20,000 nucleotides of DNA from an uncultured virus (IMG/VR IMGVR_UViG_3300031975_000839) (Duplodnaviria; Heunggongvirae; Uroviricota; Caudoviricetes), in the IMG/VR virus record IMGVR_UViG_3300031975_000839; one strand, written 5' to 3'. The translations under genes were made by a program, and so were the position numbers. Below, piece after piece: positions 1 to 12,954 of the stretch. Under the pieces are notes generated by a model, which was not told where the DNA came from, ran no database searches, and worked only from the letters and a program-made list of their open reading frames with translations. Position 1 is the stretch's first letter. Each line of letters begins with the position of its first letter.

Positions 1-140
1 CCATCAGCAATTGCATGCTGTAAATGTATTACTGTATTATAAGAACCTTTTGAATTTAAAACTCTATCACCAACAACAATATGTTCAATATCTTTATAAT
101 CACCATTTTCAAGTAACACTTTTGTTCCAGCAATAAAACA
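1..140 (-). other. Hint/intein domain N-terminal part (block A), in frame within the VrlC-like protein
   Basis: Translation reads ...STIRENRPASI|CFIAGTKVLLENGDYKDIEHIVVGDRVLNSKGSYNTVIHLQHAIAD. Cys at 140-138 (residue ~1526) starts the canonical CFxxGTxVxxxxGxxKxIExIxxGDxVL Hint signature. Truncated by the window edge. Confidence 0.88.
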
Positions 141-3100
141 AATTGATGCAGGCCTATTTTCTCTAATTGTACTTGTTGATGTAAATTTACTTGTTGTTTG
201 GTTTACTGATGTTTGAACAACTCTCGCATTTCTAGTTGAGATAATTGTTTCTTGCTCAGTTTCTATTACACCCTTTGCAGTATATATTTCTTGTCCGGCT
301 GTTAAAGGTAGTGTTGACCTATCGTCAGTTGAGCTTGATGTTAATCTAAATTCTACATCACCTGATTTAAATTTAGGCACAGCTTGTTGCCCTGCAAATC
401 TATATTCTGGTATTCTAAATGTAAACTCTACTTTACCAGCACCATTTGTAACTAATGCACTACCCTCAACTGGATTATTACTATCAGAAAATTCTGATGA
501 AGATGGAGTAATGAACTGACTAACAGCTGTTCTATCAAAGTATGCATAAAGTCTAGTTCCTGGCCTAAAACATTCACCAGTTATAGTAATAGTTCTTGGG
601 CGAACAAATGGAATTAATGCTCTTGATATAATTCTTTTACCTTGAGATTCATGCTCAACATGTTCAACAACTGATGTTCTTACACCAGTTCTTTTTAAAT
701 CTGTTCTTGATGTTGTAGTCGTTCTAGTGCCTGATCGCACACTTGGAACTTGTTGACCCCAACGACCAGTTGTTGTAGTTCTTACACTTGTTCTTTCAGT
801 TTTTGTGCTAACAACACCAGACCATTGTGTTTCCCAATTGTTCCAAACTGTTCCTAAAGCTCCAGAGTTTTTTAGTGCATTTTTAACGCTGTCAAAGTTA
901 CCCTCACGATTAATTATAAGTGCTGGTGCTTCTTCGGTTTCAAACCATTCATCACCACTTGGTGATAGTGTTATTTTACCAACCCATTCTTGTATCAAAT
1001 AAGTTTGAACATTTTCAACTCTTGTTGCATACGGCTGTTTAATTAATTCCTCATGCGTGTAAGGTAAAGTCAATAAATCACCAGTTTTTTGATAACCAGC
1101 AGATGCTCTTGCAGTGTCTGTAGTTGCAAGCTCAGTAAGTGAAGAATTTCTCATTACACAAATTGGACGAGCTTCATTCTCCTCCATATCAATTGCAATT
1201 TTATAATCCTTATTTAAAGTATCACCAACTTTATGCCCAGAAAAATTATCTACAATGAAACCAGATTTAAATCTGTCTAATCCATTTGCATCTTGAATCT
1301 GGAATGATTCTGCATCTCTTTCTAATAAATTAAGTGCAGTATAAAATTCTAAATTTTCTATTCTTTCTTGTAATCTACCAATATCTCTCATGGTAAATCT
1401 TTGTGTTTTATACCTTTGTATTTTCATTCCATTTGCAACTTCTGTAAATGCTGGAATGTAAATAGTTGCAAGTTTCATTGCATTGTCTATATCTTTTGGC
1501 TCTGTTGGATCTTCAGCAGATACACCCTCTACTACTTTAAATTCACCATCTGGTAGTAAAAATACTGATGCAAATTTATTAAGAAAAAATTCAAAATCAT
1601 TTGTCATTGCAGCACCAGGCTGTGGTGTATCAACGACAACTGCACCAGTTGAATCAAATGTTCTATTTGTGTGATTAAATGAATTTCCTGTGATTTCATC
1701 AACTGCTGTAATTACAGTTGACGCACCAGTTACATTTGAAACAGTAGGCCTAAAGTCTACACTATTTCTAAGTTCAAATGAACCTGATGGCTCTGGATCG
1801 TCTGGGTCAATTTTTGTCGCACTATAGTCTGGTATATCTGCATAATTCATTTGCCCAGAAACAGAGGAATAAGAATCAACAGAGAAAAAGTCTCCAGCAC
1901 CATGCTCAAAAAAGTCATAAACAATTAACAGTCTACCTCTTGGAGCTGCAACGCCAGGTTTTCTAACTAATCTTGAAATATCGTAATAAGTATCTCTTTG
2001 TCCATTGTCTAATGTAAAGTTACTTGTAATCACTTTACTACCAGCAGTAACACCACCAGTATCAATTGTTGCAGTTGCACCTGAGTGAACACCAGTAATT
2101 GTTTCACCAGCAATGAAATCAGTCGCACCAAATCCACCAATTAAAACATATTGCAATGGACTTGCAGTTGTGATTAATCTACCTTTAGCACCAGATGTTC
2201 CACCAGTAATTCTTTCACCTCTTTCAAATACACCAGTTGCAGAAGATATAGTAAGTGTTGGTGCAGTTGCGTCTGTAGAAGTATCCTCTGAATCAAATAC
2301 TGCATTGAGTCTGAATACATCTGCACGGCCAAAAGAAATAGTTTTATCTGCTGGCCTTGTTCCAAATGCATCTGTAGCACCAGTAGTAACTTTCAATTGC
2401 TTCATCAATTGAGTAGTTTTAATCTTTGGTTGCTGTGCAGATTTTGTAAGTGTTGCTAAAACTTTAACTTTTGCACCAGATCCAAATACAGTATTATCTG
2501 TAATTGTAAGTGTTTGTGTTCCAGTTCCAGAAGTATTACCACTTGCAGAAACTATATCACCAGCTGCACCACTACCAGTTCCAGCTGTAATAATTGAAAC
2601 AAGGTAATCTTTTTCTGCAAAAGTAACAAATGTTTCATTTGTTCCAGCACTTAAAGTTACAACACCAGATGCGTTTGATGTTGCGACAAATTGTGTTCTT
2701 GCATTAAATGATGTATCACTTGCACCACTGTTTGATTCTGTTTTAAGTGTCTTAATTGGTTCTTTAGGTAATTTGAATACTGCAATAGATTTTTCTGAAT
2801 CTCTTACTTTAGCTTCTTCTTGAACTTCTAGTCCAACTGCAAAACCTTGAGCATCTGTATTACCTGTTTCAAAAACTATACGATCAACTGGGTCAGCATC
2901 ATTATTAAATCCACCACCTCTAAACACTGCATCATCATCTGTTCTTTCTAAAAGAATGTCAGCTGAAAAGTTTGTAGTAGTTGAACCACCTTGTATTTGT
3001 CTTGCTTCTCTTAATTGATTTGTTTCTATGGAAACAATTGTTAAATCTGTATCAGTAGCATCTTCTACAATTAAATCTGTTTCAGATGAATCTGATGCTT

Positions 3101-4715
3101 TGATTTTTTCTCCAGCTGAAAATTTACCTACAACTTGAGTTAATATAACTTTATCTCCAGATGTTCCAGTTGGGAATACAAATCCTGTCGCACCAGAAGT
3201 GTTGCCTGTAACTTGAACACCACCATTAGAATGATTTGCAAGTAAAGTTGCACTTGGAGTTCCAGACATTGTTAATGTCGTAAACATTTGAGTATCAAAT
3301 ACTGACAACTTATAAACTGATTCTGTATTTGAACTTGTTGCGCCTGGAGTTTGTCCTTGCTCAAATTCCATGAAACGAGCTCGTGTGACACCAATTTGCC
3401 TACCAGCACTAGAACCTCTAGTTGTTGTTCTTTCTGTAAATAAGCCTATTTGACTATAGGGTGTTGTTTCACCTGAAATATTAGATATATCTGGAGTACC
3501 AAATACATTTGTAAGTCTAAGTGTATTACCAACTTCTAAGTTTGTAACACCAGCATTAATTGTTTGAAAATCTCTTGCTTTATCTATGTCTATGAGTTTT
3601 GTTGCAATTTGCTCAACTTCGTAACCTTTTACATATGCTTTTCCTGGCGATACTGAAAGTGTAAATAAAGATTCTGACGCAGTATTACCATCATTAGTTG
3701 TTGCACCAGCAGTATAAGTTCCAGTAAAATCTTGCCCCTTAACTGTTGTGTCAACACTTTCTTTTGCATCAAAAATAAAAGGAACTACTGTATAATCTCC
3801 AGATTCATCAAATGTTCTTCTTGCAAGAGTATCACCTAAAACTGAATATTCAGTTGCTTGAACATGAGAAACTATAACTCCGTTATCTATTCTCATTAAC
3901 TCTATAAAATTTGTATCAGCGGTAGAGTCAAAGTCTAACTTTGAAAGTGTTAATGATACTTTTAATCTATGAGCTCCTTTAGCTGCATAGTTTGATGAGC
4001 CAGTTGCATTGTCTGTAAGAGTTGCATCTATCTCTGGTGTAATAAGTTCCTCTGTAACTGTAAAACCAATTCTTGCAGTTTCTGTTGTTGAATTAACACT
4101 CAATGGTAAAGTTTGCTCTGCACATTGTACAAACTGCCCTCGTATAAAATAAATTCCTTTGTCTACTTTTACTGATGAACCAGTCTGTGATGCGTTAGAT
4201 GAAAAAGTTGTTCCAGATGCAACACCAGAACCATATGTCGTTGTGTGTGTTACACTTGCATCAGCAGTAATATTTTCACTATTTGAAAAGACTCCAGAAG
4301 TTAAATCTGTTCCAGTCTGTATATAATAGATGTATAAAATTGGTTGTGTTGTAGTAGTTGCAGCTTGAAATCCAATTACCTTTGCTTTAACACCAGAAGT
4401 TACGCCTGTAATTATTACTGGTGTAGTTGCATTATAAAATGATTCTGGTTTAATTGTTTCACCAGCAAATGTTGACTCTAATTGTAATGTATCAAATCTA
4501 TCAGAGTAGGATACTTGGCCAGGTATGACCATTGCACCCTCTTTAAACATATGATTACCATGTCTTTCAACTTGATTTTGAAGTATGGATTGAAGTTGTG
4601 TTAATTCTCTTGCCTGAACTGCATATCCAGGCCTAAAAAGAATACGATGAAATAAATCGTCTTGGTCAAAATCGTCATAATAAGGTACTACATTTAAATC
4701 GGTAATTTGTGGCAT
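1..4715 (-). CDS. DUF4815 / VrlC-like large virion structural protein (3'-partial, >1570 aa)
   Basis: Absent from the ORF track because it has no stop inside the window. Manual translation from ATG at 4715 (2 nt after the gp8 stop) gives MPQITDLNVVPYYDDFDQDDLFHRILFRPGYAVQARELTQLQSILQNQVERHGNHMFKEGAMVIPGQ, the characteristic N-terminus of VrlC/DUF4815 proteins that follow gp8 in marine T4-like phages. The same frame is open at the left edge and at spot-checked internal positions. Confidence 0.9.
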   Translation of the reverse strand, partial: MPQITDLNVVPYYDDFDQDDLFHRILFRPGYAVQARELTQLQSILQNQVERHGNHMFKEGAMVIPGQVSYSDRFDTLQLESTFAGETIKPESFYNATTPVIITGVTSGVKAKVIGFQAATTTTQPILYIYYIQTGTDLTSGVFSNSENITADASVTHTTTYGSGVASGTTFSSNASQTGSSVKVDKGIYFIRGQFVQCAEQTLPLSVNSTTETARIGFTVTEELITPEIDATLTDNATGSSNYAAKGAHRLKVSLTLSKLDFDSTADTNFIELMRIDNGVIVSHVQATEYSVLGDTLARRTFDESGDYTVVPFIFDAKESVDTTVKGQDFTGTYTAGATTNDGNTASESLFTLSVSPGKAYVKGYEVEQIATKLIDIDKARDFQTINAGVTNLEVGNTLRLTNVFGTPDISNISGETTPYSQIGLFTERTTTRGSSAGRQIGVTRARFMEFEQGQTPGATSSNTESVYKLSVFDTQMFTTLTMSGTPSATLLANHSNGGVQVTGNTSGATGFVFPTGTSGDKVILTQVVGKFSAGEKIKASDSSETDLIVEDATDTDLTIVSIETNQLREARQIQGGSTTTNFSADILLERTDDDAVFRGGGFNNDADPVDRIVFETGNTDAQGFAVGLEVQEEAKVRDSEKSIAVFKLPKEPIKTLKTESNSGASDTSFNARTQFVATSNASGVVTLSAGTNETFVTFAEKDYLVSIITAGTGSGAAGDIVSASGNTSGTGTQTLTITDNTVFGSGAKVKVLATLTKSAQQPKIKTTQLMKQLKVTTGATDAFGTRPADKTISFGRADVFRLNAVFDSEDTSTDATAPTLTISSATGVFERGERITGGTSGAKGRLITTASPLQYVLIGGFGATDFIAGETITGVHSGATATIDTGGVTAGSKVITSNFTLDNGQRDTYYDISRLVRKPGVAAPRGRLLIVYDFFEHGAGDFFSVDSYSSVSGQMNYADIPDYSATKIDPDDPEPSGSFELRNSVDFRPTVSNVTGASTVITAVDEITGNSFNHTNRTFDSTGAVVVDTPQPGAAMTNDFEFFLNKFASVFLLPDGEFKVVEGVSAEDPTEPKDIDNAMKLATIYIPAFTEVANGMKIQRYKTQRFTMRDIGRLQERIENLEFYTALNLLERDAESFQIQDANGLDRFKSGFIVDNFSGHKVGDTLNKDYKIAIDMEENEARPICVMRNSSLTELATTDTARASAGYQKTGDLLTLPYTHEELIKQPYATRVENVQTYLIQEWVGKITLSPSGDEWFETEEAPALIINREGNFDSVKNALKNSGALGTVWNNWETQWSGVVSTKTERTSVRTTTTGRWGQQVPSVRSGTRTTTTSRTDLKRTGVRTSVVEHVEHESQGKRIISRALIPFVRPRTITITGECFRPGTRLYAYFDRTAVSQFITPSSSEFSDSNNPVEGSALVTNGAGKVEFTFRIPEYRFAGQQAVPKFKSGDVEFRLTSSSTDDRSTLPLTAGQEIYTAKGVIETEQETIISTRNARVVQTSVNQTTSKFTSTSTIRENRPASICFIAGTKVLLENGDYKDIEHIVVGDRVLNSKGSYNTVIHLQHAIAD

Positions 4716-4717
4716 AT

Positions 4718-6217
4718 TTAAAACTCTATAATTAATTTAATATCTTCGGTTTGATCCGAATCTCGTTGAATTGGTTTTCTATTTTCTAAGTAGACAATGT
4801 TTCCACTATCTGGTTGTAACTCTGGATTTGCATATCCTGATGTTAAGGTTAATGTGTTATTATTTGCAAGTGTTACTGTCTCTGTTGTTCCTGATGTTGT
4901 TCCAGTTGCACCAGATGTTCCACCAGTTATTTGGTTTGCTCCACTAAATACAGTCAGTCCACTATTTGTAGCACTAGTTCCAAATCCAGAAAATCTCTCT
5001 TGTTGAAAATATAAAAGTTTGAGTGTGCTATCCCACTCTACCACTTTACCTACTGCTCCTGTAGTTGCTTGAGTAATTTGTTCGTCTGCCTCAAATGTTC
5101 CACTGTTGGTATCAAGTTTAACAACAAAGGTTTGTCTTGCAGTTGTAGAAGATGCAATGGTAGAAGTTCCATATGTTGTTGGGTCTACCACAAGTCCTAC
5201 TTGCCTGAAATCATTTTGAGTCGTTACATCGTCACCCTCTGCTTGTGTAAGTGTTACTGCACTCATTACAAAGTGTCCACCTAACTCCCCAATCGCATCA
5301 TTACCATGCCCACCCTTTGGACTGATGACGACATTAATTGCACCACCAGTTCCACTACCTAAAGTAGATGATGTTGACAAAGAAGCATCAGAAAAAATAA
5401 AATCATCACCAAGATTGACTGTTCCAAAAGTATATCCAGCTCCACCAGCGTGAATTGTTGTATCTGTTCCAGCAGTCAATCCAAAAGATGCAATTGCACC
5501 ACTTGAAACAGTAATTCTAACTATTGCACCAGATGATGTTCCTTGACTTGTTCCATCACCAAACACAGCTGCATAGTATGTTCCGTCTGTATATCCAGAG
5601 CCAGCAGTTACAACTAATGATTCTATTTTACCATCTGTTGCAGCTGCAGCTACAGTTGTATCATTAGAAACAGGCATATAATCAGTGGTTAAATATTTTG
5701 CAGCTTCAGATGCAGTTATGGAATACATATATTTAAGAACATAACCACCTGAAGCAAATGGTGAGGTTGATTCTGATGTCGGTTCAGCACCAGAAAATGC
5801 AGCTCCACCATTATTATCTAAAACTTTGTAAACTCTATGGTCAGAAGTCATAAAGAAAAATGTTGAATCATATAAATTTGATGCACCAGAAGATGAGGTG
5901 TTTGAAGAACTTATGTTATGCTCATACATGTCATAAATTGTTCCGTTTACCCAATTTCTTCTTGGTAATGCATAGGTAATATCTGTTGATGCGATTTTTT
6001 TTGCAGCTAACATAGAATCCCATGCATAAAATTCTGTTTCTCCTACTGCATCAGCAGGAGTTGGTGGAGAACTGTCACTACCAGTTGTAGTTGCAGTTGT
6101 AAATGCAGTTGCTTTTCCTATGAAAAGATAATATGTTGATGCAGATGCTTCTGTGAAAGATTCAAAGAATTGATCTGCGTTGTGTTGCCTAAATTTTTCT
6201 GTTATAATTGCCGACAT
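4718..6217 (-). CDS. gp8: Baseplate wedge subunit gp8-like
   Basis: 499 aa. MSAIITEKFR start, YYLFIGK, PRRNWVNGTIYDMY and VYKVLDNNGG motifs, and C-terminal SGNIVYLENRKPIQRDSDQTEDIKLIIEF typical of marine T4-like gp8. Lies between gp7 and VrlC. Confidence 0.9.
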   Translation of the reverse strand: MSAIITEKFRQHNADQFFESFTEASASTYYLFIGKATAFTTATTTGSDSSPPTPADAVGETEFYAWDSMLAAKKIASTDITYALPRRNWVNGTIYDMYEHNISSSNTSSSGASNLYDSTFFFMTSDHRVYKVLDNNGGAAFSGAEPTSESTSPFASGGYVLKYMYSITASEAAKYLTTDYMPVSNDTTVAAAATDGKIESLVVTAGSGYTDGTYYAAVFGDGTSQGTSSGAIVRITVSSGAIASFGLTAGTDTTIHAGGAGYTFGTVNLGDDFIFSDASLSTSSTLGSGTGGAINVVISPKGGHGNDAIGELGGHFVMSAVTLTQAEGDDVTTQNDFRQVGLVVDPTTYGTSTIASSTTARQTFVVKLDTNSGTFEADEQITQATTGAVGKVVEWDSTLKLLYFQQERFSGFGTSATNSGLTVFSGANQITGGTSGATGTTSGTTETVTLANNNTLTLTSGYANPELQPDSGNIVYLENRKPIQRDSDQTEDIKLIIEF

Positions 6218-6251: not shown

Positions 6252-9200
6252 TTATACTGTTATTCCTGTTGCACCCTCTAAATCAAAATTATCTCCAGCA
6301 TTTGATGATGTGCTGTCTGTTCCGTTTAATACTAAATAACCATGAGAAGTTACACCATCTATATTGTTTATAGTTTCGTCCTCTAACGCAATATCACCAG
6401 TTGTCCTCACAACAATTTCTGATGCTTGAACTATTGGTTGAGCCCCTACTGGATTTACACTACTATTTAGTGTCCAATTCTCAATAGGTATCTGTCCTTC
6501 TGAAATAATTAAATTTGTTGACTCAAGTAATAATTCTGATGCAGTATCATTTCGTAATGAATCTTCTAGTAACACTTTATCGCCTGCATTAGGAATTGGA
6601 TCATCAATACCCGTTCCGTTTAATATAATTACATCATCACCACTTGTTCCTTGTATTTCTAGTTTAATACCAGAATCATCTGTAAGATCTTCTTGTGATT
6701 CTAAATTAAGAAGTGAACTGTTTTCACCCTCTAAAAGTATTCTTTCAACAACTGAATTAGAAGAATATTCTTCTTCAATTAAACTTCCAGATAGTTCTAA
6801 AGTAAACCTATTTCTTTTTGTAGTTTCTTGCAACAAATGATTACCAGCATTTGATGATGTACTGTCTGTTCCATCTAAAATAAGTTGTCCAAAATCCTCA
6901 AGAAGAACTCCAGTATTTTCAATTGCATTTGCATTATTTTGCTCTACTGATTTACTAAGATTATCATTAATAATAATTTTACTCTTATTAAGAATATCGT
7001 TAAAAGTTAAACTATTTACATCACTGAGTTTAACTGAAGTGTCATCATGGTCATCTTCTAATAATATTTTTTCATGCTCATTTATATAATACCCAACTGG
7101 AAATGCCCATGTATCTGATTCAGCCATGAGAACAGAATCATCACCACCTTGCTCTAATAGTATTCTATCTTTTAAGCCTCTTGTTACAAAAGTAGAATCC
7201 TCTTGTAATATTCTACTACCATCTTCCATTAAAATATTACCGCCATCATCTGTACCAGATCCATCTGTTGCATTTAATACAACATGGTCTCTATCCTCAT
7301 CACCCTCAAGTAATATTGGAACATTAGGGTCATTAAATGGAAGTGTTCCATCTATGACTAAGTTACCAGACTCAAAAGAACCCTCAGTTGAGTTTTCTAA
7401 TTGTAGTGCAGATTGCCCACTTCCAAAAGGATTTTGTGCAAGTTGTAGTAAAAGATTTCTTGCAGCTCTAACTGTAGGCCTTGTAGATATATCTACCTTT
7501 GTTCTTTTAACTAAAACTCTCTCTGCTTTACCACTCGGTGCATGAGAAGTTTCTGCCATGAGCCTACCACCACCATCATCATTGGTATCTCTTTCTGGAT
7601 TACCCTCAAATAAAATATTGTCTCCAGCATTACTTGATGAAATATCTGTTCCATCAAGAATAATCGTATCATCTCTATCACCTCTATCACCATCTGGTGC
7701 AACTTCTAGTCTACTTTTAATAACTTGGTCAAATATAGTTTCAAATGTAGATGCAAGTATTGGTGAGAATCTATCATCACCAGTAAATCCTGATAATGTG
7801 GCACCAGCATTTGTTACTGCAACTGATATTGCAGATGCAATTGACACTTTACCAAATGGTCTAAATCCAGCTGGGTGAACTGCTTTCTTGAGTTCATTTA
7901 CATAAGTTCCAAATGCTTCACCAACTTGAACCTCATATGAATAATCTTGATAGTAATAAGAGTCTTGAACACGAATTAAATCTTCACCTATTAAACTTTT
8001 TATACCACTATAAGAACCCTCAGAAGTTGATGTTTGTCCTATTTGACTTGATGCAGTTGCAATGTCTGCTTTGATGATTGTTCCTGTTGCACCAGTGTTG
8101 TCAGTTATAACAACATTATCTTTACTAAAATCTATTGCATCTTCATTAATAATATTGTCACCAGCATCACTTGATGAACTATCAGTTCCATCAAGAAGTA
8201 TATCTCCAGTTCCAGTTTCATCTTCTCCTAGTAAATTACTATTTGCATCAGTAGAGTCTGAATCAGTTCCATTTAAAATTAATCTGTTTCCAGCTTCTTC
8301 TATTGCAACAACTTCACCAGCTGCTGTTCCGTCAGAATCAATTCCATCAAGGAGTAAAAATTGCCCTGATAAATTTTCTTGATACCTATCTAATTTAATT
8401 ACACCTACTCCTGACTCTGGTGCAATAAAACTTGAATCACTAACTTCTAAAATAAATCTATCACCAGTATCAGAAAAACCAGTAAGTGTAACTCTTGGTT
8501 CATTTTCCTCCATGACTAAAATGGAATCTTGTCCATCATTAGAACCAACTTCTAATAAAATATTATCATTTTGGTCAACACCACCAGATGCAGTTTGATT
8601 AAATCCTATTCTTGATTCTCTTGTGACTGCAAGACTTTCTTGCATTAAGAAACCAAGTCCTGTATCAGTTCCGTCCTCTAATAAAAGTCCACGAATAGCA
8701 GTTTGACTTGCATCTAATAAAACATTTTCACTCTCATCTTCTATGGTGGTTTGTGGATCTGGTGTATATGCAAGTCCACCCATACCAGAGTGATTTACAC
8801 AATAATAATATAAGTCTGGAGCTCCAGATGCAACAACTATTTGAATATATGCACCTGTTGTTCCAATATCAATATAAGATGCAGAAGTTGTAACACCATC
8901 AGTATATTCAGATCCACCACCATGTGTTCCGTTTGGTGTTATTGAAAATTTAAGTTGATGATTTTTAGATGATACTGCGTTGTACAACGAACTATCTGAT
9001 AAGTCAAAGTAATAAGTGTTACCCTCTGTTAATCTAAGTGTTGGTTGTGGAACACTATCAATTGCAAAAATGTTAGCAGTGTCTGATGCATTTCTAACAA
9101 CAGTAACTTTTTTAGTAATTGTTCTTGTGGATGGTGTTGTAATTGATGTTCCATCTAATAAAACATCTTCACCATCATCAAAGTCTTGTGTGTCCTCTAA

Positions 9201-11315
9201 TAAAATACCACCAGCAATATCACCAGTATTTGTTCCAACCTCTAAATCTATACCCTCATTAAAAGTTGCAGTTGATTCTTGCTCAACACGAATTACATTT
9301 TCAAATTCTGTATCAAGAACATTTGTATTTGAATCAAAACTTTTAACTGTTCCCACATGAGATGTAAGAGTATTTCCATTTGTAAAAGTTCCAGATACAT
9401 CTTTAAGAACAAAGTGAGCTCTAGGCACAACTGTGGGTGCATTATTAGTAAAATTAAAACCAGAATCACTTACTTTTAAAGATTTTATCCCACCAATATC
9501 ACTCGTTGTTGCGAGAACTGATGCACCAGTTCCAGATGTAGTTGTAATAGTGACTGTTGGTAATTTTGTATATCCATCACCACCATTTGCAACATGAACT
9601 TTTTGTATAGCACCAGCCTCTGCTGTGCTAAATGTGTCAGACTCTAAAACAATTTGATCTGTTTCTGTTGTGTGAGTATCCTCTGTTTCAAAAACAGTAT
9701 CAGTAAGAATTTGGTGATTTGCATTTGCACCAAGTCCATCTGTTCCATCTAAAATTAAATTATTAAGAACATTACCACGAACATATATTTTTGCACCATC
9801 TGCTGGTGCAGTGGTAAATGTTAAAGTTGTTCCACTTGCAGTCCAATTAGTTGGTGAAGTTAAAGTATCATCTGTTTCTGGAAAATTAACATCATCAATG
9901 GTAACAATTATTGTATCTGTTGTTGTATTTAAATTTGTTAAAGTAAATACTGTTGTTGTTCCATCACCAATAAAATTATCATCTAATATATTTTCTAATT
10001 GAATATTAAATGATTCTAAATGTGTTTGAGTTCCACTTTCTAAAATTATACTATCAGATGTAAATGTAGGATCATCAAGTGTTCCTGATTCTAATTGAAT
10101 ACCACCACCAACCATACTGACAAAACCAGATGCAGACTCAACTAAATTATCTGATGTGGATTCAGTAAATGTTAAAGTATCACCAACCTCATAACTTGTT
10201 CCAGCGTCATCAACTTTAACTTCACTTACTGAGCCACTATGAATTTCACTTACAAGAACATCACCAAATCCATTTCCTAAACTTTCAACAACTGTTGGCT
10301 CATTCACACTATGAAGAATACCATCATTACCAACACTTGCAGATGAAATAATTGATGAAATTGTAAACTTAACATTTAAATCTCTAGTAGAGGATAAACC
10401 ACTTACAATTTCACCTTTAGAAAATGTTCCTGATACATTTTCAATTGTAAATTCTGTTATTGATTCAGTTCCTTGTTGAAACGATAAAGAGGAAACAACA
10501 GTTGCAGTTGCACCAGATGTTGCACCAGTAATAACTGCATCAATAACTTCAGCGCCAGATACTCCTGATGTATTAGGAGTGACACGCATAGTTGTTGTTC
10601 TTCCCCAATTACCATCTGAAGTTCTTAAAACATTTTCCGTTGGATAAAATATTTCTGGCTGCTCTCCTACGAACAATCTCATAAACAGTTTATGACCCTC
10701 TGATGTTCCTTTAGCTGCATAGAGGTCTTTAATACTTTTTATGAGATTCCTCTTTGATACTCCTGATGCAAGAGTGTTTGGTATTGCGTTCATAAATGAG
10801 TTACGGAACTCATCTAAGAAATCATAGATTGTATTATCTGTGTTTGCGTATTCTAATAACTGCTGAATGTTTTGAACTGGATTTGCACGATACTGCTTTA
10901 TTGCTCCAGTTGCACCAGATGTTGCACCAGTAATTGTTTCACCAGTAATAAATTTTTGCTGAGAGCTAATGTAAAGATAATTGTTTCTTAAATCTTGTAG
11001 TAATACTGTTGCAGTTGCACCAGATGTTGCACCAGTAACAGTTTCATTTTCAACAAAGTTTGAAGTAGAGCCTGCACCAGATTCAGTAACAACTCTGTCA
11101 CCATCTGCATTTAAAATATAATTTGTTGTTGTAGTTTCTTGTATGATATAATCTATGTCTGGAGTATCTAAAGTTATTCTTCCAGCTTCAAGGTATTGAT
11201 AATAGTGCTTAAGAAAACGAACAAAAACAGGGTGGTCTGATTGAACAAAATCAGGAACTTGGCCTTCTATTAAAGGTGAAACTTTTGTAACTAATTTAGA
11301 ATCGTTTTTACTCAT
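6252..11315 (-). CDS. gp7: Baseplate wedge initiator gp7-like, enlarged with inserted domains and acidic repeats
   Basis: 1687 aa. N-terminal VSPLIEGQVPDFV...FLKHYYQYLE and LIKSIKDLYAAKGT...FMRLF motifs, and the conserved QDSYYYQDYSYEV...KKAVHPAGFRPFG block. Syntenic with gp6 and gp8. Confidence 0.82.
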   Translation of the reverse strand: MSKNDSKLVTKVSPLIEGQVPDFVQSDHPVFVRFLKHYYQYLEAGRITLDTPDIDYIIQETTTTNYILNADGDRVVTESGAGSTSNFVENETVTGATSGATATVLLQDLRNNYLYISSQQKFITGETITGATSGATGAIKQYRANPVQNIQQLLEYANTDNTIYDFLDEFRNSFMNAIPNTLASGVSKRNLIKSIKDLYAAKGTSEGHKLFMRLFVGEQPEIFYPTENVLRTSDGNWGRTTTMRVTPNTSGVSGAEVIDAVITGATSGATATVVSSLSFQQGTESITEFTIENVSGTFSKGEIVSGLSSTRDLNVKFTISSIISSASVGNDGILHSVNEPTVVESLGNGFGDVLVSEIHSGSVSEVKVDDAGTSYEVGDTLTFTESTSDNLVESASGFVSMVGGGIQLESGTLDDPTFTSDSIILESGTQTHLESFNIQLENILDDNFIGDGTTTVFTLTNLNTTTDTIIVTIDDVNFPETDDTLTSPTNWTASGTTLTFTTAPADGAKIYVRGNVLNNLILDGTDGLGANANHQILTDTVFETEDTHTTETDQIVLESDTFSTAEAGAIQKVHVANGGDGYTKLPTVTITTTSGTGASVLATTSDIGGIKSLKVSDSGFNFTNNAPTVVPRAHFVLKDVSGTFTNGNTLTSHVGTVKSFDSNTNVLDTEFENVIRVEQESTATFNEGIDLEVGTNTGDIAGGILLEDTQDFDDGEDVLLDGTSITTPSTRTITKKVTVVRNASDTANIFAIDSVPQPTLRLTEGNTYYFDLSDSSLYNAVSSKNHQLKFSITPNGTHGGGSEYTDGVTTSASYIDIGTTGAYIQIVVASGAPDLYYYCVNHSGMGGLAYTPDPQTTIEDESENVLLDASQTAIRGLLLEDGTDTGLGFLMQESLAVTRESRIGFNQTASGGVDQNDNILLEVGSNDGQDSILVMEENEPRVTLTGFSDTGDRFILEVSDSSFIAPESGVGVIKLDRYQENLSGQFLLLDGIDSDGTAAGEVVAIEEAGNRLILNGTDSDSTDANSNLLGEDETGTGDILLDGTDSSSSDAGDNIINEDAIDFSKDNVVITDNTGATGTIIKADIATASSQIGQTSTSEGSYSGIKSLIGEDLIRVQDSYYYQDYSYEVQVGEAFGTYVNELKKAVHPAGFRPFGKVSIASAISVAVTNAGATLSGFTGDDRFSPILASTFETIFDQVIKSRLEVAPDGDRGDRDDTIILDGTDISSSNAGDNILFEGNPERDTNDDGGGRLMAETSHAPSGKAERVLVKRTKVDISTRPTVRAARNLLLQLAQNPFGSGQSALQLENSTEGSFESGNLVIDGTLPFNDPNVPILLEGDEDRDHVVLNATDGSGTDDGGNILMEDGSRILQEDSTFVTRGLKDRILLEQGGDDSVLMAESDTWAFPVGYYINEHEKILLEDDHDDTSVKLSDVNSLTFNDILNKSKIIINDNLSKSVEQNNANAIENTGVLLEDFGQLILDGTDSTSSNAGNHLLQETTKRNRFTLELSGSLIEEEYSSNSVVERILLEGENSSLLNLESQEDLTDDSGIKLEIQGTSGDDVIILNGTGIDDPIPNAGDKVLLEDSLRNDTASELLLESTNLIISEGQIPIENWTLNSSVNPVGAQPIVQASEIVVRTTGDIALEDETINNIDGVTSHGYLVLNGTDSTSSNAGDNFDLEGATGITV
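6291..9760 (-). repeat. Dispersed acidic peptide repeat [IL]xL[DN]GTDxxxx[ND]AGDxhhhE in gp7 (about 9 copies)
   Basis: Copies include LVLNGTDSTSSNAGDNF (~6291-6335), LILDGTDSTSSNAGNHL (~6841-6885), IILDGTDISSSNAGDNI (~7621-7663), ILLDGTDSSSSDAGDNI (~8155-8200), LILNGTDSDSTDANSNL (~8235-8283), LLLDGIDSDGTAAGEVV (~8310-8358) and LILDGTDGLGANANHQI (~9710-9760). The 6291 and 6841 copies are near-identical at DNA level. Confidence 0.85.
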
Positions 11316-11321
11316 ATCTTA

Positions 11322-11612
11322 TTAACCAGAAAATACATTACCAGAGCCTTGTGCAACTTTACTACCACACGCAACTGGATCTCCTATTCTTCCTAATTGT
11401 AAATTATTTGCAAATACAGTTGATGAGCCAGACTCAAGAGTTGATGAGTGACTTGTTCCATCATTTATACAAACATGAACTCCCCAAGTGTCTGTTGCTC
11501 TATGAACTCCAATATTATTTGCAAATACAGTTGTGCTTCCACTAGTGTTGACTCTAGGTGGAAAACACCCATGCCCAGTTCCTAAATCTCCAATCCTAGT
11601 AACCGCCGGCAT
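11322..11612 (-). CDS. gp5.4: PAAR-repeat spike tip protein (gp5.4-like)
   Basis: MPAVTRIGDLGTGHGCFPPR...GSTTVFANN...H...H...GSSTVFANNLQLGRIGDPVACGSKVAQGSGNVFSG, a PAAR fold with His/Cys metal ligands. Start more likely at ATG 11612 (GAGGAG upstream) than at the track's 11618. Confidence 0.93.
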   Translation of the reverse strand: MPAVTRIGDLGTGHGCFPPRVNTSGSTTVFANNIGVHRATDTWGVHVCINDGTSHSSTLESGSSTVFANNLQLGRIGDPVACGSKVAQGSGNVFSG

Positions 11613-12954
11613 CTTCACTCTCCTCTGTTTCTGTAGTTGTTTGCTGTAAACTACTAGTTCTTATACCATCTTTATAATCAGACGAGTTAAAGTAATCACT
11701 TATAAATGTTCCTGTCTTTGAATAGTCTTGTGTGTTTGTAAGATATCCTACTTGCCCACTAGTAAAACCAGTTACAGTACCAATTCCATTTTTTTCATAG
11801 TCTTGTAGACTAGTAAATAATTTATCTGTGCGATAAGGAGTAGCGCCTGTTAAACCCACACTGTATCTATAATCACTACCGCCTAACTCAAATGCTCTTT
11901 GAAACTCTGGCCAATGCTGTCTAGCTTGTATTCTAATTGGAAGAAGAACTTGTTGAGTAGCATCTGGTTTTATTTCATATACCTCTTGTCCTTGTGGTAT
12001 TCCAGATAATACACCACTGTAATTAACTTGATTACCACCCAAAGATATGTTTGGTGTAGATAAATCAGATTCTCCAACAGGAACATATTTTGCAGTTACA
12101 TCAGAAAATAATTCATCATGTGTATAATATCCAGATATAGTTGCTTTTGCTGAGAAAATAACATCACCAGTTACATTTAATGCATTATCAATAATACTAT
12201 TGTATTGAGTATTTTTAGAAACAAAGTCAGCATCACCAGTTCTATCATATCCATTAAAATAACTTACATAATCTCCTAAATTTTGAAAAGTTCTACTACT
12301 TCTTCCTCTAGGAAGTCTGTCTGCATCTATAATTTGTTCAAAAGTACCATCTTTTCTAGGGTCATTTCTAAACATCCAAAAAGGATAAATTCTATTATCA
12401 CCTTGTGATGAAGTATATGATGTGTCTAAAATAAAGTCGTCAACAGTCCAATCATCTTTAAATGCAAAACTGTTGTAAGGTTCAATTCCAGAAGTACCAT
12501 TAAAATAAACTAATGGATCGGTTGCTGATGGAAATGGTGGAATTACTCTTTCATCTACATAGATACTATTTGTTACTGTAATATTTTTTCCTTTAATTAA
12601 AGGGTCTAGCATTAAATAAAATATGTGCTGACCTACATTAAAATCACCACCAAGTGGTATAGTTGTTGGATCAACTTGATACATCCAAAGTGTGTATGTA
12701 AATTCAACCTCTGGAAATATTTGAACAGTATCCACAAAACTATCAGTATCTAGTAAATTCTGATATGCACTTGGTTCATATCTTTGACTAAATCTATCAC
12801 CACTTAAAATATTTGTTATTTGGTCAGTAGTAAATTTTCTTGAAACAGTGCTGAGATTAGTTACAGGAATCATAGGATCAGTTCCAGATTCTGGAGCTTC
12901 ACTTCCTGTGCTCCAAAGAAAATTTGCAGCATAATCAACAGCAACTACTGTCAT
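11596..12954 (-). CDS. Hypothetical protein (452 aa), coupled to PAAR; possibly gp5.1-like in its C-terminal half
   Basis: Long ORF on the coding strand filling the gp6-PAAR gap and overlapping the PAAR start by 17 nt. Function not recognised; the gp5.1-like guess rests on position and weak remembered similarity. Confidence 0.75.
   Translation of the reverse strand: MTVVAVDYAANFLWSTGSEAPESGTDPMIPVTNLSTVSRKFTTDQITNILSGDRFSQRYEPSAYQNLLDTDSFVDTVQIFPEVEFTYTLWMYQVDPTTIPLGGDFNVGQHIFYLMLDPLIKGKNITVTNSIYVDERVIPPFPSATDPLVYFNGTSGIEPYNSFAFKDDWTVDDFILDTSYTSSQGDNRIYPFWMFRNDPRKDGTFEQIIDADRLPRGRSSRTFQNLGDYVSYFNGYDRTGDADFVSKNTQYNSIIDNALNVTGDVIFSAKATISGYYTHDELFSDVTAKYVPVGESDLSTPNISLGGNQVNYSGVLSGIPQGQEVYEIKPDATQQVLLPIRIQARQHWPEFQRAFELGGSDYRYSVGLTGATPYRTDKLFTSLQDYEKNGIGTVTGFTSGQVGYLTNTQDYSKTGTFISDYFNSSDYKDGIRTSSLQQTTTETEESEDAGGY

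Follow-up and report, generated by a model that had tools for sequence, protein, structure and literature searches.

Tandem type-A BIL-like Hint domains inserted in VrlC, a baseplate protein of an uncultured T4-like marine phage

The VrlC gene and its two Hint domains

The DNA analysed here (the window, 20,000 nucleotides of the IMG/VR record IMGVR_UViG_3300031975_000839) is segment G000:C1:47438-67437 of a 70,408-bp contig (33% G+C) derived from an uncultured marine T4-like (Kyanoviridae-like) phage. At its left end the minus-strand gene for the virion protein VrlC (DUF4815) contains, in frame, two complete mini-Hint domains, which we call Hint1 and Hint2; most of this two-domain cassette lies outside the window. 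The VrlC open reading frame (ORF) at window 3..4715 (-) comprises 1571 codons, runs out of the window at the left end and appears only in ORF listings that include open-ended frames. When the contig was extended, VrlC gained 873 codons, giving a protein of 2444 amino acids (genome 44818..52152, minus strand). The features of the locus are the following; coordinates marked L001 refer to the extended locus.

Window 3..4715 (whole gene to G000:C1:44818; L001:4818-12152), minus strand: VrlC/DUF4815 baseplate-associated gene, the first 1571 of 2444 codons lying in the window (open-ended ORF list, translations, Pfam, PHROGs)
Window 141..251, minus strand: Thr/Ser-rich variable linker ETIISTRNARVVQTSVNQTTSKFTSTSTIRENRPASI, residues 1489-1525, ending ...RENRPASI before Cys1 of Hint1 (translation, homolog alignments)
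Window 3..140, minus strand: first 46 residues of Hint1; CFIAGTKVLLENGDYKDIEHIVVGDRVL begins at Cys1526, whose codon is window 140..138 (translation)
L001:7146-7577, minus strand: Hint1, residues 1526-1669, 144 amino acids (translation, Pfam, own hidden Markov model)
Arg1670: the single residue separating Hint1 from Hint2
L001:6657-7142, minus strand: Hint2, residues 1671-1832, 162 amino acids (translation, Pfam, own hidden Markov model)
L001:6627-6647 for DPLAQTF, minus strand: Lys1833-Gly-Gly, then DPLAQTF (residues 1836-1842), where VrlC resumes (translation)
Window 4718..6217, minus strand: gp8-like gene of the baseplate wedge, immediately upstream of VrlC (match to phrog_438 'baseplate wedge subunit' with 420.4 bits)

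Hint1 opens with CFIAGTKVLL... at Cys1526, has a block B of the form TEDH and a block F of the form VYNF..TYY, and terminates in VHN1669 (blocks F and G: VYNFSLDGDKTYYANGWLVHN). The corresponding elements of Hint2 are Cys1671, SEDH, LYNF..HTY and VHN1832 (blocks F and G: LYNFVLTGNHTYMVKMKEHDEFIVVHN). The residue following the terminal Asn (the +1 position) is Arg1670 after Hint1 and Lys1833 after Hint2, and thus not Cys, Ser or Thr. Hint1 and Hint2 share 33% identity (E 1e-22), and each contains one cysteine, the catalytic Cys1. A six-frame search of the contig with a hidden Markov model (HMM) built from the two domains returned exactly two copies, Hint1 and Hint2.

On the full VrlC protein five Hint-family models of Pfam scored above their cut-offs: Hom_end_hint (64.9 bits, cut-off 32.1), PT-HINT (42.7, cut-off 27.7), Hint (30.9, cut-off 29.7), Vint (30.6, cut-off 27) and Hint_2 (30.8, cut-off 28.4). 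With the 46-residue piece encoded in the window alone, every Hint model stayed below the Pfam cut-off (Hom_end_hint 30.1 vs 32.1, Hint_2 17.6, Hint 13.1). NCBIfam holds no named family for this Hint subfamily; its generic intein_Cterm model, TIGR01443, scored just above cut-off (16.6 vs 15.6).

In the AlphaFold2 model of residues 1485-1884 (mean predicted local distance difference test score, pLDDT, 79.6) the segment is predicted to fold as two Hint domains. Ten-residue blocks in both domains had a mean pLDDT of 70-98, mostly 86 or higher; in the linker and at the start of the downstream module the score was below 50. Foldseek returned 39 Protein Data Bank matches at E <= 0.001, and those listed were inteins, Hedgehog domains, Vint domains and bacterial intein-like (BIL) domains. 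The top match was BIL2 of Tetrahymena (6y75/6tmm; E 2.5e-9, template modelling (TM) score 0.79); the Clostridium thermocellum BIL domain 2lwy (E 1.1e-6, TM 0.80) stood, like 6y75, within the top six, and the mini-intein gp41-1 (6qaz) aligned with TM 0.81. By sequence, 2lwy was the best solved protein (E 4.7e-4 with the single query, 8.6e-15 with a 31-sequence profile), with Tetrahymena BIL2 close behind in the profile search (E 1.1e-14). Profiles, fold and blocks A, B, F and G concur in placing both domains in the Hint superfamily.

The Pfam scan of full VrlC revealed no LAGLIDADG or HNH model, and domains of 144 and 162 residues leave no room for an endonuclease. Among the genes near VrlC an endonuclease family was never the best PHROGs match; one weak match, at L001:592-1161, lay under a stronger match to 2-oxoglutarate-Fe(II) (2OG-Fe(II)) oxygenase.

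A preliminary description of the window had proposed a single in-frame Hint domain with an intact Cys1, about 1525 residues into VrlC, and had pointed out that the ORF track missed it. Both strings it quoted read on the minus strand, the cysteine is Cys1526, the frame is listed only if open ends are allowed, and the five Pfam models confirm the Hint assignment well beyond chance; the number was too low, there being two complete domains. Extension of the contig to the left, which it had suggested, uncovered blocks B, F and G in both domains and the resumption of VrlC at DPLAQTF. The expected terminal His-Asn is present in both domains, whereas Arg and Lys stand where a Cys, Ser or Thr had been looked for.

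The identity of the host gene follows from its DUF4815 match (191.4 bits on full VrlC, cut-off 30) and from its place beside the gp8 wedge gene in a T4-like module; it also matches phrog_358 with 1766.8 bits. Its best cultured relatives are found in Methylophilales phage Melnitz, Pelagibacter phages Mosig and HTVC008M and T4-like cyanophages. The Melnitz homolog, 46% identical, adjoins a baseplate wedge gene, and in Melnitz, Mosig, HTVC008M and P-SSM4 VrlC lies beside gp8 in the same neighbourhood and order as here. The T4-type baseplate module of the contig runs gp5-like hub/lysozyme, gp25, gp6, a 452-residue ORF, PAAR, a 1687-residue protein, gp8, VrlC, a small virion protein and fibre genes. 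In excerpts of a published study VrlC is described as a conserved phage core protein that replaces T4 gp7 in such phages and is seen as integral to a two-layered baseplate (PMC7029224).

The 1687-residue protein (window 6252-11315, -) has mixed matches (head closure Hc2, baseplate wedge, virion structural) and is encoded between the PAAR-like gene (window 11322-11618, -) and gp8. In T4, the corresponding place between the PAAR-like gene and gp8 is occupied by gp7. Downstream of the fibre genes two adjacent small genes (L001:50-1161; G000:C1:40050-41161, -) match 2OG-Fe(II) oxygenase and 'ferrochelatase' PHROGs, and may be auxiliary genes inside the host-recognition cluster.

Insertion site, distribution and the wider subfamily

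Alignment of VrlC with four cultured and five close metagenomic homologs placed the insert between the segment ETEQETI..TRNA.VVQT with its variable linker and the invariant motif DPLAQ(T/S)F. The linker before DPLAQ varies among the homologs in length and sequence, as the preliminary description had proposed. Twenty Hint-bearing proteins with VrlC motifs were found; DPLAQ is present in 18 of them, and in all 18 the Hint array ends 1-13 residues before it. The other two, P0019 and P0034, have VrlC motifs and Hints without DPLAQ, and a search with P0034 yielded no closely related sequence. In P0034, as well as in P0023, P0055 and P0057, the last Hint ends HN-K and is followed by a conserved tail of about 75 residues, C(C)WVARK(V/I)YG...KW(I/L)D.K..LQK.., in place of a DPLAQTF module; the tail starts with Cys and contains no known domain.

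The DPLAQ module itself is widespread, occurring in 1669 phage records including Herelleviridae and Ackermannviridae. The existence of this module as a separate gene, which would favour cutting, was considered on the lead of phrog_5986 (a 409-position profile matching residues 1829-1999) and dropped: in both genomes checked, the module is part of a single long gene (ORF36 of Staphylococcus phage ISP, gp210 of Salmonella phage Det7).

Hint domains are rare in VrlC. VrlC matches were found in 1680 phage records, and a search of all 50,697 records with the Hint pair gave no match in any VrlC gene and only four weak matches in total (helicase intein, terminase intein, one hypothetical protein). 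Only one protein from a cultured phage, Achromobacter phage 2-1 (L006:3083-4525), matched the pair over more than a quarter of its length (two pieces that make up 53% of the query); it is a hypothetical protein with a weak tail-fibre PHROG match, encoded two genes downstream of the baseplate hub gene. In two IMG/VR samples drawn blind to Hints, 80 loci were examined each, of which 45 and 53 cover the site; Hint-bearing were 0 of the 45 and 1 of the 53 (1/98 overall). The one, L096, has a single 143-residue Hint followed by Lys-DPIAQTF, in an unsplit VrlC gene.

Two close relatives differ at the site. P0005 carries the same Hint pair as our phage; its flanks are 83% and 87%, its Hint1 89% and its Hint2 78% identical. 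P0047 has equally similar flanks (84% and 88%) and an empty site, occupied by an unrelated basic linker of 35 residues. On a FastTree tree of 114 C-terminal modules, for which the strict motif and at least 450 residues after it were required, Hint presence needs at least nine changes, with P0047 nested between P0002 and P0005; the 18 Hint-bearing rows of this tree came mostly from a Hint-targeted search. G+C and third-codon-position G+C (GC3; 0.13-0.16 in the Hints, 0.125-0.136 in the flanks) are alike in insert and host gene, so composition gives no sign of recent import. As judged from the P0005 identities and GC3, the insert evolves at the pace of the host gene.

Contigs from three seawater DNA runs (three studies, some of which may be the source sample) span all 1601 bases compared, without a difference, and the identical stretch is also present in IMG/VR (L007). 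The joint that a Hint-less variant of the phage would have was not seen in the contigs of these three runs, which drop rare variants and may include the source sample. In a marine metatranscriptome run (X20) a 237-base contig crosses the Hint1/Hint2 junction (L001:7077-7313) with one difference; it indicates presence in an RNA library, and such libraries can hold DNA.

As read from the sequences, the rare and patchy occurrence favours an optional element that would be exchanged by recombination in the conserved flanks. It suits such an element as well as or better than a fixed part of the protein, and the word 'domesticated', used in the preliminary description, goes further than this distribution supports.

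Outside VrlC the subfamily is large. A search with the Hint pair over 1.84 billion cluster representatives matched 4170 at E <= 1e-3, 1435 at <= 1e-10 and 81 at <= 1e-30. Copies were delimited with the HMM built from the two query domains. In 53 length-matched homologs with 129 full copies Cys1 is present in 129/129 and His-Asn in 126/129, and the +1 residue is Lys in 116, Arg in 10 and Gly in 3 (Lys/Arg 126/129). A broader set of 144 representatives (50% clustering) with 176 full copies gave Cys1 in 176/176, His-Asn in 167/176, and at +1 Lys in 136, Arg in 11, Cys in 6, Ser in 3 and others in 20 (Lys/Arg 147/176). Among 278 distinct aligned copies, a set pre-filtered for His-Asn ends and therefore 100% His-Asn by construction, no copy departs from Cys1 or the block-B His, 99% have a Trp eight positions past this His, and block F has its Tyr in 94% and its Asn in 97%. 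This conservation of Cys1, block-B His and His-Asn argues for live chemistry, as far as sequence can indicate it.

Many proteins contain tandem arrays of two to seven copies in head-to-tail order, most often separated by one residue, Lys or Arg. Hint1 is closest to copies that open an array and precede an Arg, Hint2 to 162-residue copies that nearly always stand second or later in the array and without exception precede a Lys. Because the copy types keep their order, we take the pair for an old cassette rather than the product of a recent duplication in this phage.

DUF4815 was recognized in 7 of 30 host proteins scanned. The others were large, with Big_9/cadherin, DUF11, LamG/PKD or FBA domains, or with none known, and some Hint hosts gave weak matches to phage structural families. 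Thirteen proteins of about 1400-1800 residues without DUF4815 (P0003, P0004, P0006, P0009-P0016, P0022, P0025) carry arrays of 4-7 Hints in a fixed order (146-residue types, 162-residue types, a diverged last unit) with the spacing HN-K-C; their N-terminal parts match part of the phrog_773 profile ('major head protein'), and one matches a virion structural family. A related Hint occurs in P0049 and P0054, alpha-2-macroglobulin family proteins (one named from Patescibacteria), which brings a thioester-forming Hint into a family already equipped with its own thioester. The 4119-residue P0008 of Mucilaginibacter has five tandem 142-residue Hints spaced K-G-G-x-S, LamG domains and a type-IX secretion tail; its annotation as 'Hint domain-containing homing endonuclease' looks like a carry-over.

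Class assignment, predicted processing and alternative explanations

Type-A BIL domains, known since 2003, are defined in excerpts of two articles by Cys1, a terminal His-Asn and the absence of a +1 nucleophile (PMC4031507, PMC7765530), and both query domains show all three features. They are close to type-A BILs in sequence and structure; the margin over the mini-intein gp41-1 is small, so the assignment rests mainly on the +1 residue and the context. Intein mechanisms of classes 1 to 3, as outlined in an excerpt of PMC4031507, need a Cys, Ser or Thr at +1; with Arg1670 and Lys1833 in that position, the canonical intein route is closed. A homing endonuclease, typical of inteins although not obligatory, was found neither nested in the query Hints nor as the best match of a neighbouring gene. 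Type-B BILs, which lack a C-terminal His-Asn, do not match domains that both end in Val-His-Asn. Hedgehog/Hog domains differ in several respects: here the -1 residue is Ile or Arg and not Gly, His-Asn is present, another Hint or VrlC follows directly, and there is no sterol-recognition region. A PT-HINT toxin is not suggested either, the downstream module being conserved VrlC and VrlC containing no Pfam toxin family. With regard to the host context of BILs, the site is a variable linker, yet VrlC itself is described in an excerpt as a conserved phage core protein (PMC7029224). Taken together, the variable-linker site, the lack of an endonuclease, Arg/Lys at +1 and BIL domains as nearest solved relatives fit BIL-type autoprocessing better than a homing intein.

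The preliminary description had likewise favoured a BIL/Hedgehog-like module over a homing intein with endonuclease. The BIL half of this proposal is borne out by the +1 residues and the nearest solved relatives, the Hedgehog half is contradicted by the His-Asn ends and the missing sterol-recognition region, and the domain sizes and Pfam scan agree that no endonuclease is present. It had also stated that a full endonuclease-containing intein with patchy distribution would reduce the find to an ordinary mobile intein; patchiness was observed, the endonuclease was not. Its term 'undescribed system' is too wide for the class, type-A BILs being known, and apt for the subfamily, its arrays and its baseplate location. 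No paper on Hints in VrlC, on tandem Hint arrays or on Hints in baseplate proteins was found in a literature search whose scope excluded subscription journals; as far as these searches reach, the subfamily, its arrays, the +1 Lys and its place in phage baseplate proteins are absent from print.

We estimate with a probability of about 70% that the insert is an optional two-unit, type-A-BIL-like self-excising cassette in the linker before the DPLAQTF module, an activity proposed by analogy. With the layout [Cys...His-Asn]-Arg-[Cys...His-Asn]-Lys, each unit would shift the bond before its Cys1 (Ile1525-Cys1526, Arg1670-Cys1671) to a thioester, and cyclisation of its terminal Asn (Asn1669, Asn1832) would break the bond that follows. 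With Arg or Lys next in line, the canonical transesterification, which requires a Cys, Ser or Thr at +1, would be impossible; thioester formation and Asn cyclisation without a +1 nucleophile would let the cassette remove itself by cutting or by rejoining. In the former case VrlC would be cut into an N-part (1-1525) and a C-part (1833-2444). In the latter the freed amino group would attack the thioester, and the parts would rejoin with a short Arg/Lys scar that the variable linker would tolerate. According to excerpts of four articles, type-A BILs mostly cleave and sometimes splice, and rejoining via the freed amino group has been shown for some of them (PMC4031507, PMC7664689, PMC7765530, PMC5874633). 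Transferred from these Hint and BIL mechanisms to our cassette, mainly cutting would be the leading outcome, at somewhat less than even odds; mainly rejoining is a possible, slightly less probable one, and something else would be unlikely. Among related phages the cassette would be exchanged or lost, probably by recombination in the conserved flanks. The conservation of the catalytic residues fits cutting as well as rejoining, and a selfish as well as a useful element. Tandem copies could raise the chance of at least one cut, or could reflect unequal crossing-over.

Several points weigh against a self-excising cassette. The predicted processing is carried over by analogy across the whole subfamily, the identity to characterised type-A BILs is modest (about 20-26% in fold alignments), and gp41-1 scores nearly as well. 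The near-universal Lys/Arg at +1 lies outside the published type-A BIL definition and is left unexplained, as is the one-residue tandem spacing. The rarity of the cassette among VrlC genes leaves its benefit to the phage unproven. In addition, the Hint-bearing rows of the tree came from Hint-targeted and the Hint-less rows from Hint-blind searches, so the tree shows patchiness and not frequencies.

The +1 residue is also the starting point of the alternative that survives best, though we consider it improbable. A lysine epsilon-amine, belonging to the +1 Lys or to a neighbouring baseplate protein, would attack the Cys1 thioester, which would result in branched rejoining or would tie the N-part of VrlC to another protein. 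In the same vein, and with the same low likelihood, the Cys...His-Asn-Lys units might be seen, by analogy, as thioester-driven ligation devices of phages and of bacteria with giant surface proteins, which would forge covalent (iso)peptide links after assembly; the N-part of VrlC would be joined to a lysine that belongs to VrlC, to an adjoining baseplate protein or to a protein on the host surface, and tandem arrays would offer several 'shots'. The best structural match of the pair is BIL2 of the Tetrahymena BUBL1 locus, which is reported, in section 2.4 of PMC8616854, to form an isopeptide bond between a Lys epsilon-amino group and a C-terminus, conjugating the N-flank to other proteins. Isopeptide formation would give a role to the +1 Lys found in 116/129 and 136/176 copies, which the ordinary BIL model leaves unexplained. 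However, the residue after Hint1 in the query, and in the relatives equivalent to it in position, is not Lys but Arg, a poor nucleophile, and Arg also stands after the last Hint in four VrlC arrays (P0017, P0058, P0062, P0190), which argues against ligation or cross-linking as a general rule. A Lys side chain near the thioester would have to be assumed, and the nucleophilic Lys of BUBL is located, in the same part of PMC8616854, inside the downstream domain and not at +1.

Still less likely is an ordinary selfish mini-intein pair, with precise class-1 splicing and homing by a free-standing endonuclease encoded elsewhere. The presence of all four blocks A, B, F and G, the empty-site allele in the close relative P0047, the patchy distribution, the position directly beside the most conserved motif of the region and the TIGR01443 score (16.6 vs 15.6) would all suit it. 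The +1 position speaks against it: it is Arg/Lys in the query, and among the 305 copies counted no more than nine have Cys (6) or Ser (3) there, all of them in the broader set, whereas class-1 to class-3 routes, in the excerpt cited above (PMC4031507), need Cys, Ser or Thr there. The Pfam scan found no endonuclease in the insert, and no neighbouring gene is best matched by one, the weak match at L001:592-1161 being overlain by 2OG-Fe(II) oxygenase. On its N-side the site is a variable linker and no conserved enzyme motif, and the subfamily occurs, like BIL domains, in many unrelated large surface and structural proteins.

That the domains are catalytically dead relics, kept as linker beads in the mature baseplate protein, is very unlikely: both fold with high confidence in the AlphaFold2 model, and phage fibres and surface proteins often contain arrays of small repeated beta-domains, but a spacer needs none of the Cys1, block-B His and His-Asn kept in nearly all of about 300 copies of very diverged proteins, and the single Cys of each query Hint is the catalytic one.

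The putative self-excising cassette combines unusual traits: no canonical +1 residue, a fixed Lys/Arg past the predicted cleavage site, head-to-tail stacking and insertion at one exact point of a core baseplate protein. To our knowledge, inteins and their relatives have been described from phages nearly exclusively as selfish insertions into enzymes of replication and packaging. Should the units cut, virion proteins would have a maturation route that is new; should they rejoin or cross-link, phage tails would have a new kind of post-translational chemistry, and the units would form a compact natural set of self-processing tags adjacent to a Lys. The ligation reading, if true, would mean that proteins are conjugated in virions without ATP, a counterpart of the ubiquitin-like conjugation that BIL domains carry out in ciliates. 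The host phages are abundant and marine; the same DNA was assembled in seawater runs of at least three studies, and the family of 4170 cluster representatives carries no name in NCBIfam. The case is of real interest to specialists of inteins and phage tails.

Comparison with known systems

The closest known class are the type-A BIL domains, reportedly described by Amitai in 2003 and Dassa in 2004. The VrlC Hints share with them, and with 2lwy in particular, Cys1, the block-B His, the terminal His-Asn and the lack of a following Cys, Ser or Thr, as well as the mini-domain size without endonuclease and, as regards the linker, the location in a variable region of a large non-enzymatic protein, VrlC itself being conserved. 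The block F of 2lwy has the same form, YNF...HTY; no solved protein matches better by sequence, and in the fold comparison, too, 2lwy ranks near the top. Unlike type-A BILs, the query pair is hosted by a phage virion (baseplate) protein, and its subfamily has a nearly fixed Lys/Arg at +1 and ordered tandem arrays with one residue between copies. The insertion point in VrlC, just before DPLAQ, is constant, and the activity of the pair is a prediction.

BIL2 of Tetrahymena thermophila BUBL1 (6y75, 6tmm), the top Foldseek match, measures about 143 residues from Cys1 to the terminal Asn, similar to the VrlC Hints; its polypeptide, too, bears more than one such domain, with cargo separating them. 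The cargo of BUBL1 is a ubiquitin-like domain, whereas that of the query is a single Arg or Lys. BUBL1 is moreover a eukaryotic locus, and the isopeptide chemistry described for it in the excerpt of PMC8616854 is no more than a possibility in the query.

Phage mini-inteins such as gp41-1 (6qaz) resemble the VrlC domains in the Hint fold (TM 0.81), Cys1, His-Asn, small size, phage origin and the existence of empty-site alleles. In contrast to canonical mini-inteins, the query Hints have no +1 nucleophile, lie outside the conserved motifs of replication and packaging enzymes and occur in tandem, and their subfamily is spread over many unrelated structural and surface proteins.

The PT-HINT domains (PF07591) of polymorphic toxins, whose Pfam model matches VrlC with 42.7 bits (cut-off 27.7), offer the parallel of a self-cleaving Hint placed before the C-terminal module of a very large protein. 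In VrlC the module after the Hints is not a variable toxin but the conserved C-terminal module that is present in 1669 phage records.

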